A DNA stretch of 64,000 nucleotides from a bacterium. GTDB lineage: Bacteria; RBG-13-61-14; DATKZS01. The DNA is taken from assembly GCA_963674965.2 (NCBI GenBank), contig CAXXFL010000001.1, positions 1,408,001-1,472,000 on the forward strand, in the 5' to 3' direction. A program made the translations under genes and the position numbers. The notes under the pieces are model-generated. The model was not told the origin of the DNA. It made no database searches and saw nothing but the letters and a program-made list of their open reading frames with translations. Of this stretch, positions 941 through 25,174 are shown piece after piece; within the stretch, counting starts at the first letter, position 1; each line of letters starts with the position of its first letter.

Positions 941-2890
941 ATGAAGTCGGGAAAGACCATCAAATCGATGAAGCTTATGGCGGCCCTTTTTCTGGTCAGT
1001 TTCTCCGCTCAGGCCAAGCCGGTAATATTCCAGGAACCACTCAGCCCGCGTATCGCCAATTACGATATCGAGGTCAAGCTCGATCCGGCCGAGCGTCTTA
1101 TACGGGGAAGAGAGGTCCTGACCTGGCACAACAAGACCGATCAGGCGACGGACGAGATGTATTTTCATCTTTACCTTAACGCTTTCCGGAACGACCAGTC
1201 CACCTTTATGAAAGAATCCAATCGATCGGGCTCGAAAAAACTCGATAAAAAGGACGGGTGGGGATACATCGAGCTGGAAAGGGTATCCATCCAGGGCGGC
1301 CCGGACCTGACGGATGAAGTACGTTTCGCCTGGCCTGACGACGGCAACACGGCCGACAAGACCGTGGCCATGATCTCGCTTCCCCAAGCGGTCGAGCCGG
1401 GAGGGTCGGTTATTGTCGAGATCGACTTCGCTTCTCGTCTTCCCTCACCACCCATCGCCAGGAACGGCAGCAAGAAGGAATATCATTTCGCTTCTCAGTG
1501 GTTTCCCAAGGTGGGCGTGTTCGAGGATGGCAAGTGGAATTGTCATCAGTACCACGCCCATTCCGAGTTTTACGCCGACTTCGGAGTATACGACGTTTTC
1601 ATCACCGTGCCCGAGGAGAATATAGTCGGGGCCACCGGTATCGAGGTGGAGGTTTCAAACAACGGCGACGGCACGGCCACCCATTACTATCACGCGGAGG
1701 ACGTACATGATTTTACCTGGACTACCTCGCCCAACTTCGTGGTTTTCATGGAAAGGGTCCAGGACGTTGACGTTCGTCTCCTCATGCAGAAGAACCATAA
1801 GGGCCAGGCAAAGCGGCATCTGGAAGCGGCGCGGATCGGTATCGGGCGTTTCCAGGAATGGTTCGGCAATTATCCATATCCTAACCTTACCATAGTGGAC
1901 CCTCGCGACGGGGCCTTTGCCACGGGCGGCATGGAGTATCCTACTTTAATCACGGCGGGGACCTTTCCCGGACTTCCCGGCGGGGTACGCATCGTCGAGA
2001 TGGTGGTGATTCACGAATTTGGCCATAATTTCTGGTATGGCATGGTTGCCAGTAACGAGTTCGAGGAAGCCTGGCTTGACGAGGGCATCAACACCTACTC
2101 GGAGATTCAAATAATGCACGACGCTTATCCGTCTCAAAGCAGCATTGTCGACTTTTTGGGATTCAAGTTTGACGACCTGCAGATGAGGCGATATTCCTAC
2201 GTCCGCTCTCCGGATTACGATCCGGTTGTGAGAAAGTCGTGGGAGTACTTTTCAGGCGGCAGTTACTCGGCCATGGCCTATTCCAAGCCGGCGCTTGCCC
2301 TGGTTACGCTCGAGAATTATCTGGGCCGGGAAACCATGCGCGAGATTATGCGGGCCTATTTCGAGAGGTATAAATTCAAACATCCAAAAACTCAGGATTT
2401 TATTGACGTGGCCAATGAGGTATCCGGCCAGGACCTTTCCTGGTTTTTCGATCAGATGCTCTACACTAACGCGGTCCTTGATTACGCCGTATGGTCGGTA
2501 AAGAGCGAGAAGGTGAAGCCGGGGATTGGTATAGACTATACCGACTCCATTGGCGGCGATAAAATATCATTCTCTGGAGAGACCGAGACGATGTTCGAGA
2601 CGGTTGTTAAGGTAAGGCGCCTTGGAGACTTTAAGTTCCCAGTCGAAATCGAGCTTGTCTTTCAAAACGGGGAGACGAATCATGAAACCTGGGATGGGAA
2701 AGATTTATGGAAAGAATATAGATATTTAAAACCAACTCGACTCGCGAGCGCCGCGGTTGACCCAGAAAAGAAAGTAGTCTTGGATATTGACTGGAAAAAC
2801 AATCTTATGAAAGCGGGAAGAAAAGCAAAATCCAGGAGCGCCGGACATGGATACCTGGACATGATGAAATTTATGATGAATCCTGACTAA
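941..2890 (+). CDS. Secreted M1 family zinc aminopeptidase
   Basis: Signal peptide (SAQA); GGMEYP exopeptidase motif; HEFGH...WLDEG zinc motif; AGGAGG RBS. Confidence 0.92.
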   Translation: MKSGKTIKSMKLMAALFLVSFSAQAKPVIFQEPLSPRIANYDIEVKLDPAERLIRGREVLTWHNKTDQATDEMYFHLYLNAFRNDQSTFMKESNRSGSKKLDKKDGWGYIELERVSIQGGPDLTDEVRFAWPDDGNTADKTVAMISLPQAVEPGGSVIVEIDFASRLPSPPIARNGSKKEYHFASQWFPKVGVFEDGKWNCHQYHAHSEFYADFGVYDVFITVPEENIVGATGIEVEVSNNGDGTATHYYHAEDVHDFTWTTSPNFVVFMERVQDVDVRLLMQKNHKGQAKRHLEAARIGIGRFQEWFGNYPYPNLTIVDPRDGAFATGGMEYPTLITAGTFPGLPGGVRIVEMVVIHEFGHNFWYGMVASNEFEEAWLDEGINTYSEIQIMHDAYPSQSSIVDFLGFKFDDLQMRRYSYVRSPDYDPVVRKSWEYFSGGSYSAMAYSKPALALVTLENYLGRETMREIMRAYFERYKFKHPKTQDFIDVANEVSGQDLSWFFDQMLYTNAVLDYAVWSVKSEKVKPGIGIDYTDSIGGDKISFSGETETMFETVVKVRRLGDFKFPVEIELVFQNGETNHETWDGKDLWKEYRYLKPTRLASAAVDPEKKVVLDIDWKNNLMKAGRKAKSRSAGHGYLDMMKFMMNPD

Positions 2891-21916: not shown

Positions 21917-22981
21917 TTATTCCGTCTCTCCAAAGGGCTCGACAAGGACCTTGATCGAGTTGCCGGCGCCGGCCACCAGCATGAACCCTTTGCCCGCCTC
22001 CTCCAGGGGAAGGCAGTGGGTGATCATGTCCGCGACGGGCAAGCGCTTATACTGGATCAGCTCGATGGCCCGTTCAATATCGGTGGGAGCGCAGGCGTAA
22101 GAAGGCATAAGGGTGATGCCGTTACGCCAGAATTCCTGCACCGGAACGGGCAGGTGTACTCCCGGATCGGTGGGCGCGAAGAACATTACCGTTCCTCCCC
22201 GGTCGACCGACTTCAGGGCCTGCTCGAAGGCCGGGTAGGCGCCGGTGCAGATAATTACCAGGTCGGCCGGGCGGCCGCATATCTCGACCAGCCTGGCGGG
22301 CACGTCCTCATCCGCCTTGATCGTGGCCTCGGCCCCGAAACGCCTGGCCGCCTCGAGACGGTAGTCGTTCATGTCGGTGGCGACGATCATGCCCGCGCCC
22401 AACGCCTTGGCCAGGGCCACGTGAAGAAGACCCGACAGGCCGGCGCCCAAGACGAGAACGCTTATGCCGGGCCGAGTCTTCGCCAGCCTCTGGCCCCGAT
22501 ACACGCAGGCCAAGGGCTCGATGAACACGCCTTCCCGGTAGGTCATCGAGTCGGGAATCACGAACGTGCCCCGGTCAACGTTGATCTCGGGCACGCGAAG
22601 ATACTCGGCGAAGCCCCCCGGAAAAAAGTTGGTGGTATGAAGGGTCTCGCAAACCGTGTGGTGGCCGTTGACGCAGTAGTGGCAGGAGTTGCAGGGAACG
22701 TGATGGGACACGAACACGCGCTGGCCCACTTGATACTTATCCACCTTCGCGCCCGCGGCGACTATCTCCCCGGCGATCTCGTGGCCCAGCACCAGGGGAG
22801 CGCGTTTTATCCTGTACCATTCCATCACGTCGGAGCCGCAGATGCCGCTGGCCATGACCTTGACCAGCATCTCGTGCGGTCCGATCTCCGGCACGGGCAT
22901 GGTCTCGGTCCGCACGTCGGCGTTCCTGTAGTACATGGCCACTCGCATGTCCGATCCTGGCGCGGGAGCGGGACTGGTCAT
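21917..22981 (-). CDS. Zinc-dependent (polyol/sorbitol-type) dehydrogenase
   Basis: GICGSD, GHE, structural Zn CNSCHYC...C, GAGLSG. Confidence 0.9.
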   Translation of the reverse strand: MTSPAPAPGSDMRVAMYYRNADVRTETMPVPEIGPHEMLVKVMASGICGSDVMEWYRIKRAPLVLGHEIAGEIVAAGAKVDKYQVGQRVFVSHHVPCNSCHYCVNGHHTVCETLHTTNFFPGGFAEYLRVPEINVDRGTFVIPDSMTYREGVFIEPLACVYRGQRLAKTRPGISVLVLGAGLSGLLHVALAKALGAGMIVATDMNDYRLEAARRFGAEATIKADEDVPARLVEICGRPADLVIICTGAYPAFEQALKSVDRGGTVMFFAPTDPGVHLPVPVQEFWRNGITLMPSYACAPTDIERAIELIQYKRLPVADMITHCLPLEEAGKGFMLVAGAGNSIKVLVEPFGETE

Positions 22982-23044
22982 AATAGTCTCTCCTATGATG
23001 GTTGTCTACCCAACCTTTTAAATTAGCTGAATTATTTTACAAAC

Positions 23045-24061
23045 TCAGCCTTTCGCTATTACTCCGTTCGGGAAGTCCTCCCAAATCAAGTTTTCCTGTA
23101 AAGTGATGTAAATGATCTTCAAAAATTTGCGAGCCAGCGCGATGATGGCCTTGCCCGCGCCGCGCCTGGCCTTGATACGCTCGTAGAAGCTCGACAAATA
23201 AGGGCTGTAACGCTTGGCGATGAGGGCGCATTGGACCAGGGTAGTGCGGCCGAGTTTGTTGCCCCGCTTCGTGATCCGGCCCGAGCGGCTGGTCTCGTTC
23301 GAGTTGCTAACCCGGGGGACGATGCCGAAGTAGGAGGCCAGCTTGCCCTCGTCGGGGAAGTCCTTGACGTCAACGATCACCGACAAAAGTATGGCCGAGC
23401 CAAGGTCCCCGATACCCTTTATGCTCTTCAAATTCTTGTGACCGGGAAGCTGATTGCCCGAGTCCTTGATGGCGGCCTCAAGCTCCTTGACCCCGGCGTT
23501 CAAGCCCCGAATCTGCTCCACCAGGACGCGGACCTCGGTCTTGACCATGGGGTCGAAAGGTATCTCCTGCACCGTCTCAAGGCCCTTCTCGCTGGAAAGA
23601 TATTCCTTCTTCAGGTTGATGCCGTGGGCCGAGCAGATGTTGTTGATCTTGTTCTTCAAGGCCGTGCGAAGCTTCACCAGCTTGTCCCGGCTTTGAGTGA
23701 GGCTTTTAACCTGAGCGTGTTCCTTGTTCGGCATCCTCACCTCCGGCAAAAGGCCCTTGGACAAAAACAGGGCAAGGCGTCTGGCGTCGTTGCCGTCCGT
23801 TTTGTTGACCGACTCGCTGATGACCTTGAACTGGCGAGGGTTGACAACCACGACGCGGGAAACGAGGCCGCGAACGGCGTCGTAAAAAAGGCGGACGTTG
23901 CCCGTGACCTCAACCGCGATCTCGTCGGACTCGCGAAGCGTCGAGCAAAACTTCTCCAAATCCTCGAGACGCCAGTCCTTGAGATAGTTCCGTCCGTTCT
24001 CGGCCAGGACGCAAGAGGTGAAACAATTCCTGTGCAGATCGATTCCAATGTACCTTCCCAT
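23045..24061 (-). CDS. IS110 family DEDD transposase/recombinase
   Basis: YIGIDLH, AVEVTG, KTDGND (DEDD); SIKGIG; LASYFGIVP..SNS catalytic-Ser region; ITKRGN..LGR; AIIALARK. Confidence 0.95.
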   Translation of the reverse strand: MGRYIGIDLHRNCFTSCVLAENGRNYLKDWRLEDLEKFCSTLRESDEIAVEVTGNVRLFYDAVRGLVSRVVVVNPRQFKVISESVNKTDGNDARRLALFLSKGLLPEVRMPNKEHAQVKSLTQSRDKLVKLRTALKNKINNICSAHGINLKKEYLSSEKGLETVQEIPFDPMVKTEVRVLVEQIRGLNAGVKELEAAIKDSGNQLPGHKNLKSIKGIGDLGSAILLSVIVDVKDFPDEGKLASYFGIVPRVSNSNETSRSGRITKRGNKLGRTTLVQCALIAKRYSPYLSSFYERIKARRGAGKAIIALARKFLKIIYITLQENLIWEDFPNGVIAKG

Positions 24062-24089
24062 TTCCTTACTCCTCCCTAGAAATAAATTT

Positions 24090-24250
24090 GATCTAAGGTC
24101 GGAGTAGACACGCTTTGAGGGGCCGCCAAACTCCTATACAAGGTCTAGCCTTACGGTGGCGCTCCAGTCGCGGGGCTGACTAATCTCCTTTACGAGGTCA
24201 TAAGCCTCACGAAAACGATCCAGCCCACGACCCGCCTACTCCAATAGATC
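24090..24250 (-). ncRNA. Putative IS110 bridge RNA
   Basis: Outer stem GATCTA/TAGATC and GGAGTAG/CTACTCC enclosing two stem-internal-loop-hairpin modules whose loops match the element's target and donor junctions. Confidence 0.65.
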
Positions 24251-24321
24251 ATTCCTAACCTAGTTGAAGTATTTACCACCTCAAAACTCTTCATTCATAC
24301 CATCTCCTTTTTATGCATAAT

Positions 24322-24345
24322 AAGGGGCGCCATCCCGCGCCCCTT
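24322..24345. other. Perfect 9-bp hairpin after lsrF
   Basis: AAGGGGCGC-CATCCC-GCGCCCCTT; no clear U-tract, so terminator function is uncertain. Confidence 0.5.
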
Positions 24346-24355
24346 GTCCGGTAGG

Positions 24356-25174
24356 TTATTTCGCCTTCTTTTCCTTCTTTTTATCGTTCTTGGCTTTAAG
24401 GTCCTTGAACATCTCGAGGGCCTCCTTTGGCGGCGTGTTCTTGTGCACCACCGAGCGGACGGCCTGGATCATGGCCACCGGGTCGGTCGATTGGAAAATG
24501 TTGCGTCCCATGTCGACTCCCACCGCGCCCTGCTGCACCGCGCTGTAGGCCATCTCGAGGGCTTCCTTTTCAGGTATCTTTTTGCCGCCCGCGATCACGA
24601 TGGGCACGGGGCAGGTATTGACCACCTTCTCGAACTCCTCGCAGTGATAGGTCTTGACGATGTGCGCGCCCAGCTCGGCCGCGATGCGGGAGGCCAGGGC
24701 AAGGTAGCGGGCGTCGCGGCCCATCTGTTTTCCCACCGCGGTCACGGCCACCACGGGTATGCCGTTTTCCTCGGCCTCGTTGATCAGGTTGGAAAGGCCA
24801 AGGAGGGTCTGCTTCTCGTTCTCAGCGCCCACGAAGATGCTAAGCGCCACGCCCGAGACGTTAAGCCGGATGGCCTCGCGCATGCTGGTGGTGATGCCCT
24901 CGTCGCTAAGCTCGCCCAGGACGCTCGAGCCCCCCGAGACCCTGAGCACGATGGGTATGTTGGTCTTGGCGTCCACCGAGGTTCGCAGCATGCCCCGGTT
25001 GAGCATGAGAGTGTCGGCGTAGGGCAAAAGCGGCTTGATGTTCTCTCCCAGCTTTTCGAGCCCGGTCGTCGGGCCAAGGAAGTAGCCGTGGTCGACGGCC
25101 AGCATTACGGTACGGTTAGTCTTCGGATTAATAATACTGTACAGACGGTTTTCCAGTCCCCAATCCATCTCCAC
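24356..25174 (-). CDS. lsrF: LsrF-like class I aldolase/thiolase
   Basis: [39 protein letters not shown] Schiff-base Lys, [16 protein letters not shown]. Confidence 0.88.

Follow-up and report, generated by a model that had tools for sequence, protein, structure and literature searches.

What is encoded in the long non-coding left end of an insertion sequence whose internal letters repeat both the DNA beside the element and the element's own ends? The question is raised by an IS110-family element on the minus strand of a 64,000-nucleotide stretch of bacterial DNA, which we call the window (contig CAXXFL010000001.1 of assembly GCA_963674965.2, positions 1,408,001 to 1,472,000; GTDB lineage RBG-13-61-14, DATKZS01). 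A sequence-only reading of positions 24090-24250 had seen there a bridge RNA like that of IS621 from Escherichia coli, which works with a bridge recombinase (PMC11208160, PMC11208158), and all the strings and coordinates it gave are found in the sequence. From comparison with related elements, we conclude that the region very probably codes for the bridge RNA of an IS110-family insertion sequence that looks active.

The element encodes an IS110-family recombinase and has defined ends

The recombinase matches PF01548 (2.5e-15) and PF02371 (1.6e-21), both above the Pfam cut-offs, and aligns with IS621 chain 8wt6_A (E 6.6e-13), mainly in the Tnp domain. Residues D8, E51, D89, D92 and S213 align with the catalytic residues D11, E60, D102, D105 and S241 of IS621 and support the proposed IS110-family identity. 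The host genome (6.5 Mb in 7 contigs) carries 10 copies of the element at 9 sites, 99.7-100% identical, all of ~1.32 kb with intact reading frames and the same ends, each with different flanks. In transposase orientation the copies read flank-AAAGGAG/ATGGTATGAAT ... CAACCATCAT/AGGAG-flank, and the left junction inside a tandem dimer is ATAGGAG. Terminal inverted repeats are absent, and the element is bounded by a short common core and not by a lengthy duplication of the target; only AGGAG(A) is common to both ends (AAAGGAG/ATGG...CATCAT/AGGAG-flank in 10/10 copies), and the element boundaries are ambiguous inside this repeat (22989-22994 and 24303-24308). The ends had been placed at this same repeat, written TCTCCT, and the ten copies, whose ends do not differ, bear this out. 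A sub-terminal inverted repeat is present, ACCAT/ATGGT (5 bp) here and CAT/ATG (3 bp) in most relatives.

The left end encodes a predicted RNA with two conserved modules

The family is large: of 8,000 candidate proteins scored, 4,456 reached E <=1e-30; the best 120 relatives listed are 67-100% identical to the window recombinase. Public genomes and metagenomes supplied 160 related loci, whose recombinases are 61-85% identical. These were reduced to an alignment of 122 distinct left ends (the window and 121 loci) by leaving out loci in which the start of the left end could not be recognised, the flanks were truncated or the upstream sequence was identical to that of another, as well as one locus (L165) with a length of 23 nt. 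Four loci in which a regular expression mis-parsed loop 1 (L195, L121, L133 and L136) were left out of the loop-1 guide counts. The right-end motif ...GTAGACAAAACATCAT-AGGAG occurs in 140 of the 160 loci, and the right end is not recognisable in the other 20. Judged by sequence, the element is an ordinary member of a large, so far unnamed IS110-group family, with a well-supported bridge RNA. Two loci, L103 and L164, carry a second partial right end (ACAAACATCATAGGAG or TAGACAAACATCATAGGAG) directly after the first, which looks like a relic of tandem insertion or imprecise excision, and in one metagenome relative (L133:235-345) the first ~45 nt of the left end are duplicated in tandem.

RNA read in the sense of the recombinase gene has a minimum free energy (MFE) of -92.9 kcal/mol (z -4.03, 1/200 shuffles as good), and the opposite strand one of -59.3 kcal/mol (z -1.93). 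The consensus of the 122 left ends consists of a 5' stem-loop, a closing helix (GGAGUAGAC/GUCUACUCC) and two modules, in both of which an internal loop separates an outer stem from an inner hairpin. Over its 43 pairs, 97.4% of cells are paired compared with 91.5% in shuffles (0/500 as high), 17 pairs are changed on both sides compared with 11.3 in shuffles, and a control with the partners slid by 1-3 columns leaves 32-47% of cells paired. Such compensatory pairs are spread over several helices: helix 4 has 4 among its 10 pairs, and pair 146-162 of helix 5 is AU in 85 sequences and GC in 33, while helix 6, with 99.7% of cells paired, shows one-sided changes only. Several U-G pairs are invariant or common in the alignment, and together with the energy difference between the strands they fix the RNA strand. 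The proposal of a two-module minus-strand RNA therefore holds, its fold being kept by compensatory changes in 122 sequences, and the stems cited for it (GUCGUGGGCUG/CAGCCCCGCGAC, GAGG/CCUC and AAGG/CCUU) are all present. No Rfam 15 family matched positions 22800-24500 on either strand at E up to 10, the sole match being a chance 14.5-bit score to a long non-coding RNA model.

The motif G(G)AGTAGAC occurs twice in the element, in the right end (~23003-23012) and in the 5' strand of the closing helix (24234-24242), and is also found in relatives. Because it stands at both places, the right end could pair with GUCUACUCC in a read-through transcript.

The 3' side of loop 1 changes in step with the target

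The sequence-only reading had described AAAGGAGA (24184-24191, minus strand) as complementary to the target. In our alignment the corresponding target guide has the sequence of the transposase-sense strand of the left target plus core, and its predicted partner is the opposite strand, CTCCTTT. Across 124 insertion sites, the 7 nt that follow the first U of the loop-1 3' side repeat exactly the 7 nt left of the element in 103, with one mismatch in 18 and two in 3. The AAAGGAG guide accounts for 88 sites, 78 of them at AAAGGAG; at the 36 sites with other guides, 25 are perfect matches to their own flank and only 4 lie at AAAGGAG. The mean mismatch is 0.194, compared with 0.634 when guides are permuted among sites, and the lowest of 2000 permutations gave 0.524 (0/2000 as low). 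The base preceding the 7-mer is unrelated to the flank. The proposed complementarity is thus upheld by covariation of the loop-1 3' guide with the left flank in relatives.

Directly after the guide, the RNA repeats the first two letters of the element, AT in 122/124 guides and in 122/124 left ends. As these letters are nearly invariant on both sides they show no covariation, and they agree with a handshake guide, suggested by analogy to positions 81-82 of IS621, without testing it.

One alternative is that the structured 5' region merely regulates the transposase mRNA in cis, as a leader acting on translation or stability, that the protein alone finds ribosome-binding sites, and that AGGAG in the loops is incidental. 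Leaders of this sort are described to regulate transposase expression in the IS110 family (ISPpu9, PMC8450116), and AGGAG motifs are common, AAAGGAG occurring 2,049 times in the host genome. We nevertheless consider this explanation unlikely, since the guides UAAGGAG, GAAGGAG, CAAGGAG, AGAGGAG, GUAGGAG, UGAGGAG and CACAGAG stand at matching flanks (the 25 perfect matches among 36, reached in none of the 2000 permutations), and motifs that change in step with the flank are not incidental. A donor variant, ATGGGAG, is likewise altered in guide and right end together, and the guides are 120-180 nt away from the ends, and ~130 nt or more 5' of the start codon.

The antisense of the 3' end of 16S ribosomal RNA (rRNA), on host contig C1 near 908699 (plus strand), reads AAAGGAG and then GTGATCC, and is unoccupied. 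The anti-Shine-Dalgarno region thus matches the target guide at all seven letters, and this guide, as a Shine-Dalgarno mimic, could pair with 16S rRNA.

Loop 2 matches the joined ends of the element

Among 44 distinct combinations of guide and donor, the 3' side of loop 2 is identical to the right-end junction in 42, and in 2 of the combinations ATGGGAG in the guide accompanies ATGGGAG in the donor. The claim that AUAGGAG (24131-24137) reads the donor is borne out by this identity and by the covarying variant. On the 5' side of loop 2, the five letters facing the left-end start form a mean of 3.7/5 Watson-Crick pairs over the 44 combinations, or 4.3/5 with wobble. ACC[G/A]U occurs with left ends ATGGT (18 combinations) and AUC[G/A]U with ATGAG (11), so that C becomes U where the left-end base G becomes A. 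The resemblance of ACCGU (24153-24157) to the donor, noted earlier, accordingly extends to the family, ACC[G/A] tracking ATGGT and AUC[G/A] tracking ATGAG. A handshake of loop 2 with the first two bases of the right flank gave a weak signal (0.795 compared with 0.700, 41/2000 permutations as high).

Identity between guides and flanks could also arise by copying, through imprecise excision or gene conversion, with the internal 7-mers being relics of past junctions. Junction sequences are indeed sometimes duplicated, as in the partial right ends of L103 and L164 and in the tandem dimer. However, in 122/122 sequences the 7-mers sit at conserved loop positions, at fixed distances from conserved hairpins and not beside the ends, in a layout that is the experimentally proven guide layout of IS621 as its text describes it, which makes such an origin highly improbable.

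Copies, junctions and spread

Two copies lie head to tail on contig C7 (G000:C7:6724-9359, loci L008/L009), sharing one AGGAG(A), with their junction at L009 ~2810-2830. Since the right end of a resident copy (AUAGGAG) is one base off the target guide, a second copy may have inserted into the right junction of the first. The circle junction that had been predicted from the window is found literally in this dimer and in a contig of sequencing run X3, where the 1,314-bp junction period is also present; the joining of right end to left end that the X3 contig shows is compatible with a circle or with a tandem dimer alike. Contig depth over the element is ~178, and 18-26 over the flanks, in agreement with the copy number. 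Two low-support joints in run contigs, with sides of 21-23 letters, were disregarded as probable repeats or other organisms.

The bridge RNA might be real and the element nevertheless immobile now, its copies being old. Neither an empty site nor an unambiguous circle was found among the copies in the host genome and the sequencing-run contigs, which would suit this view. The near-identity of the ten copies (99.7-100% over ~1.32 kb), their ten intact frames and the many different flanks seen as loose ends in sequencing runs argue instead for recent spread, and we give an immobile element little credence.

Beside the 10 full copies, the host genome contains a 48-bp solo left-end fragment (G000:C6:1074153-1074200; locus L011 ~1501-1548, minus strand) with AAAGGAG just upstream. 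The 30 nt 5' of this fragment are closely similar to the sequence flanking the C7 tandem copy; the repeated host sequence may either have been struck twice or have been duplicated after insertion. Distant IS110-family transposase genes (25-29% identity) are present at further host loci (L022-L027), one such gene in four copies (C2:7789, C2:619484, C6:741988 and C6:788125). The element had no match in the 4 genomes of the same family that were searched, 2/60 other genomes searched have a match at E <=1e-40, and the best match among plasmid annotations is an 'IS110 family transposase' of 49.8% identity.

The element lands in ribosome-binding sites

At 7 of the 9 host sites an open reading frame of at least 93 amino acids starts 3-8 nt past AGGAG; of the remaining two sites, one is followed by just a 9-codon frame and the other lacks a start codon within 20 nt. 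Across the family, the first ATG lies 4-10 nt past AGGAG at 89/122 distinct sites, with a mode of 6-7 nt, and no ATG occurs in the 25 nt examined at 20/122. The whole family targets Shine-Dalgarno sites, in the same direction as the downstream gene. Most occurrences of AAAGGAG in the host genome, 2,039 of the 2,049, are not followed by the element, and 392 of these have an ATG at the 4-10 nt spacing, so the occupied sites lean toward real ribosome-binding sites, a bias for which either a second guide or selection against insertion inside genes could account.

The 5' side of loop 1 and other points against a bridge RNA

Several observations weigh against the bridge RNA reading. None of the sequencing runs that contain the element is an RNA run. 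The sites are not independent, many loci carrying related elements, and only 11 distinct target-guide 7-mers occur. The seven guide nucleotides alone are insufficient to explain where the copies are placed, given the 2,039 unoccupied AAAGGAG sequences, and the bias toward ribosome-binding sites does not need a second guide, as it could come from selection against insertion into genes. The closing helix is missing from the single-sequence MFE structure of the window copy, where alternative pairings replace it, and the core is left uncovered by the 5' side of loop 2, in contrast to the description of IS621. Across the natural junction of right and left ends, a promoter scan found 0 sigma-70-type sites; the -10-like hexamer TATGAA lacks the usual final T, and both promoter-like hexamers were picked by eye.

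A further difficulty concerns the 5' side of loop 1, which in the family is 9-13 nt long and U/G-rich, with 74 distinct versions. It shows no fixed-register covariation with either flank family-wide. Against the right flank, 8-mer scans reached z of at most 3.3 with 0.355 of positions paired, and a position-by-position matrix showed no diagonal. The longest complementary run with the sense strand of the right flank gave a weak signal (z 1.9 Watson-Crick, 2.9 with wobble), and the same test for the other strand and for the upstream flank gave nothing. In 3 of the 10 relatives with at least 3 sites, the loop-1 5' side fits its own sites far better than the sites of others. These are UGCAUGUUUC(U), with 4 sites and 8.25/11 Watson-Crick pairs with G-spacer-ATG (0/1000 null sets as high), CAUUUGUUU(U), with 5 sites (0/1000), and CAUGUUGUUU(U), with 3 sites (49/1000). 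On the transposase-sense strand, the guide of these three relatives spans the core AG, the spacer and the start codon. For the window element, the corresponding test on its nine sites gave z -0.3 Watson-Crick and +0.7 with wobble; as its loop-1 5' side does no better on its own sites, half of the expected target recognition is unproven here.

The match of GAUCGUUUU (24212-24220) to AATAGTCTC that had been put forward, 8/9 with wobble, stands for the window copy only and does not exceed chance. In this register the nine own sites score 8, 5, 6, 7, 7, 4, 6, 4 and 5 of 9 (mean 5.78), the other eight thus scoring 4-7, and 110 sites of other elements have a mean of 4.93, with 2/110 reaching 8. Covariation of the loops with target and donor is found for both 3' guides and for the 5' side of loop 2, and is not found for the 5' side of loop 1 in this element.

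Features of the window copy

The coordinates of the element and of its predicted RNA are collected in Table 1. The window copy is flanked by genes for a DeoC/LacD-family aldolase and a zinc-dependent dehydrogenase, which are both co-directional with the transposase. The AGGAG at its right end is the ribosome-binding site left for the downstream gene, and the start codon of the recombinase has its own GGGAGGAG.

Table 1. Features of the IS110-family element and its predicted RNA in the window
Feature	Positions	Strand	Basis or remark
Whole IS110-family element	22990-24303	-	1,314 bp with one AGGAG core copy counted
Left target and core after insertion, AAAGGAG (Shine-Dalgarno sequence hit)	24304-24310	-	Left junctions of 10 copies
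Left end, non-coding, 242 nt, 5' of recombinase gene	24062-24303	-	Encodes predicted bridge RNA
Recombinase gene, 338 amino acids, DEDD RuvC-like and Tnp domains	23045-24061	-	Pfam, IS621 alignment
Right end, 55 nt, finishing ...GGGTAGACAACCATCAT-AGGAG	22990-23044	-	
Host gene 3' of insertion, zinc-dependent dehydrogenase	21917-22981	-	ATG 8 nt past AGGAG
5' stem-loop	24243-24271	-	MFE; limits approximate; helix 1, 4/5 pairs changed on both sides
Closing helix, 5' strand GGAGUAGGC	24234-24242	-	Partner 24101-24109; helix 3, 8 pairs, 99.2% paired
Closing helix, 3' strand GUCUACUCC	24101-24109	-	Consensus
Module 1 (target loop) outer stem, 5' strand	24221-24231	-	Partner 24167-24178; helix 4
Loop 1, 5' side GAUCGUUUUCG	24210-24220	-	Candidate guide for sense strand of core and right flank
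Module 1 inner hairpin	24193-24209	-	Helix 5
Target guide AAAGGAG, 3' side of loop 1	24185-24191	-	Identity to left flank
AU straight after target guide, equal to left-end start AT	24183-24184	-	Candidate handshake position
Module 1 outer stem, 3' strand	24167-24178	-	Consensus
ACCGU, 5' side of loop 2	24153-24157	-	Complementary to left-end start ATGGT (one G-T wobble)
Module 2 inner hairpin	24139-24153	-	Helix 7, 8 pairs, 6 changed on both sides
Donor guide AUAGGAG, 3' side of loop 2	24131-24137	-	Equal to last 7 nt of right end plus core
Module 2 outer stem, 3' strand UGGCG	24124-24128	-	Partner 24157-24161; helix 6
TATGAA, putative -10-like hexamer	24294-24299	-	By eye; TG upstream
TAGACA, putative -35-like hexamer in right end	23003-23008	-	By eye; TTGACA in many relatives

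The two promoter-like hexamers would meet only across a right-end/left-end junction, where they are 17 nt apart. An ATG stands 5 nt past the captured AGGAG in the window (24278-24295, minus strand) and at the same place in 120/122 left ends, and the mini-frame that begins there stops after 2-10 codons in 117 of these 120 sequences. As this ATG overlaps the -10-like TATGAAT, its conservation may be due to either. The right end contains a hairpin, GGTTG-GGTAGA-CAACC (window 22996-23011, read on L009 2796-2811), followed by a T-run on the opposite strand, and looks like a terminator against transcription entering from downstream.

A model for target and donor recognition

Together, the fold and the guides suggest the following mechanism. 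An RNA transcribed in the sense of the recombinase would fold into a 5' stem-loop and a closing helix around two pseudo-symmetric internal-loop modules. The 3' guide of module 1, AAAGGAG, would pair with the strand opposite a Shine-Dalgarno sequence; the AU that follows it, at the location of a handshake guide, would match the start of the element; and in some relatives the 5' side of module 1 would pair with the sense strand over the core, the spacer and the start codon. Module 2 would read the joined ends of the element, AUAGGAG corresponding to the right end plus core and ACCGU being complementary to the left-end start. AGGAG, or CTCCT in the complementary strand, is common to target and donor, and in the relative with UGCAUGUUUC(U) the guides overlap on AG/CT. 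By analogy with IS621, strand exchange would take place at the CT core (AG on the transposase strand). Exchange at the core of a guide-matched site would place the element inside ribosome-binding sites, in the direction of the gene and with AGGAG kept downstream. We infer that the RNA is made, bound to the recombinase and paired with DNA, and likewise where the core lies, that a promoter forms at the junction and that there is a circular intermediate; the recombinase may also be programmable.

Comparison with IS621, IS1111-type elements and IS900

According to the texts describing it, IS621 resembles the present element in several respects. Both have a DEDD and Tnp recombinase with the same five catalytic residues, and an RNA encoded in a long left end 5' of the gene, in which a 5' stem-loop precedes two pseudo-symmetric internal loops for target and donor. 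In both, one guide is identical and one complementary to a given strand, the two overlapping at a CT core that is putative in the present element, and the 2 nt after the 3'-side guide match the other DNA at the handshake position, the 3' side running in the order linker, 7-nt guide, 2-nt handshake and 4-nt linker. Short sub-terminal inverted repeats are common to both, and the present element may also share a -35-like motif in the right end that faces a -10-like motif in the left end.

The two elements differ in polarity. In IS621 the top strand with the CT core runs from right end to left end in the direction of the RNA, with a 9-nt guide on the 5' side of the loop and a 4-nt guide on the 3' side (as described in PMC11208160 and PMC11208158). 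In the present element the strand with CT is antisense to the RNA, whereas it is the RNA strand in IS621, and the covarying 7-nt guides are on the 3' side and would pair with the strand opposite to the sense of the RNA. The order of the guides relative to transcription is thus reversed, the 3' guides having the sequence of the left half in RNA sense and the 5' sides being complementary to the right half in RNA sense. If the transposase-antisense strand is called 'top', the layout becomes like that of IS621, with a CT core, a 3' side composed of a 7-nt right guide, a 2-nt handshake and a 4-nt linker, and a left guide on the 5' side. From this renaming it follows that the geometry of RNA and DNA is kept and that the transcription unit leaves the junction from the other side and strand. 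The description in the sequence-only reading was implicitly in this antisense-as-top frame. Further differences are the long closing helix around both modules, a ribosome-binding site as target in place of the repetitive extragenic palindromic (REP) element reported for IS621, and the low similarity of the recombinases (E 6.6e-13), the present element being known from its sequence alone.

Guide order is known to vary. In the seekRNAs of the IS1111-type elements ISEc11, ISKpn4 and ISPa11, the segment complementary to the top strand is described as lying 5' of the one that complements the bottom strand, whereas the IS110-type ISEc21 has them the other way round (PMC11187229). If the top strand in that account is the orientation of the transposase, the present element has the IS1111-type guide order. 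It differs from the IS1111 elements described in having its RNA region upstream of the gene, an IS110 trait, and not downstream; in having a right end of only 55 nt, which is long in IS1111; and in its sub-terminal repeat of 3-5 bp, compared with 7-17 bp (PMC11208160).

Insertion at translation-initiation signals has precedents as well. IS900 reportedly targets such signals and facilitates expression of hed, to go by the title of Doran 1997. The hed frame is described as lying on the strand opposite to the transposase, without a ribosome-binding site and start codon of its own, in an element assigned to the IS110 family (PMC8141618). The strand of hed and that title, taken together, imply that the transposase of IS900 faces away from the host gene, whereas in the present family it is co-directional with the host gene, a comparison made by description only. 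IS900 and IS901 of Mycobacterium avium have been described to insert in the gap that separates the Shine-Dalgarno sequence from the start codon (Plague 2010, PMC2942039, which cites Doran 1997 and Inglis 2003), and so resemble the present element in going upstream of genes into this region. In the literature searched there was no paper linking the targeting of IS900 to a bridge RNA, and the parts of PMC4607514 consulted contained nothing on targeting. The same literature contained no paper joining bridge RNAs to ribosome-binding-site targeting, figures and supplements, which may show such a layout, being outside the search.

Bridge RNAs as such are widespread, having been predicted in 85.7% of IS110 elements (Durrant 2024, PMC11208160), and the Evo-PIN/COMPASS preprint (10.64898/2026.10.21.760802) presents 86 covariance models and 32,190 loci, stating that many bridge RNAs differ in structure from that of IS621 while still covarying with target and donor. 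The family described here may well be among those surveyed in these two studies, whose text, as far as consulted, does not mention ribosome-binding-site targeting or an inverted guide order with an upstream RNA. Recent preprints report that a substrate matching in one half can suffice for recombination and that transposition is copy-out; the former bears on how a 7-nt guide could be enough.

Implications

Three particulars of this element stand out: its ribosome-binding-site target, the short covarying guide and the inverted polarity. A more far-reaching interpretation, which we put forward tentatively and with some doubt, is that it represents a distinct IS110-group lineage, in which RNA and recombinase share a transcription unit that departs from the donor junction on the side and strand opposite to those in IS621, and in which a 7-nt Shine-Dalgarno guide aims at ribosome-binding sites, co-directionally with host genes. 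Under such an interpretation host promoters would transcribe the bridge RNA and the recombinase, the captured ribosome-binding site would precede the conserved mini-frame of 2-10 codons, and the downstream gene would receive a replacement AGGAG. Where the 5'-side guide is specific, it would read the spacer and the start codon; where the element spreads to many genes, it would be relaxed, U/G-rich and tolerant of wobble.

Bridge recombinases are under development as programmable tools for DNA insertion, and natural orthologues that vary in guide layout help to tell the fixed features of the RNA from the free ones. The family offers a clear natural 'reprogramming' series at two guide positions and evidence for a transcription unit on either side of the donor junction; a target specificity of 7-9 nt is poor for use as an engineering tool. 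For the host, ten copies placed between ribosome-binding sites and start codons, sometimes in apparent operons, are likely to alter downstream expression. For the IS110 family, these elements offer a simple explanation at the level of RNA for landing in ribosome-binding sites, a behaviour known since the 1990s; if the interpretation of a distinct lineage is true, it would give the older observation that some IS110 elements target translation-initiation signals an explanation in terms of an RNA guide.

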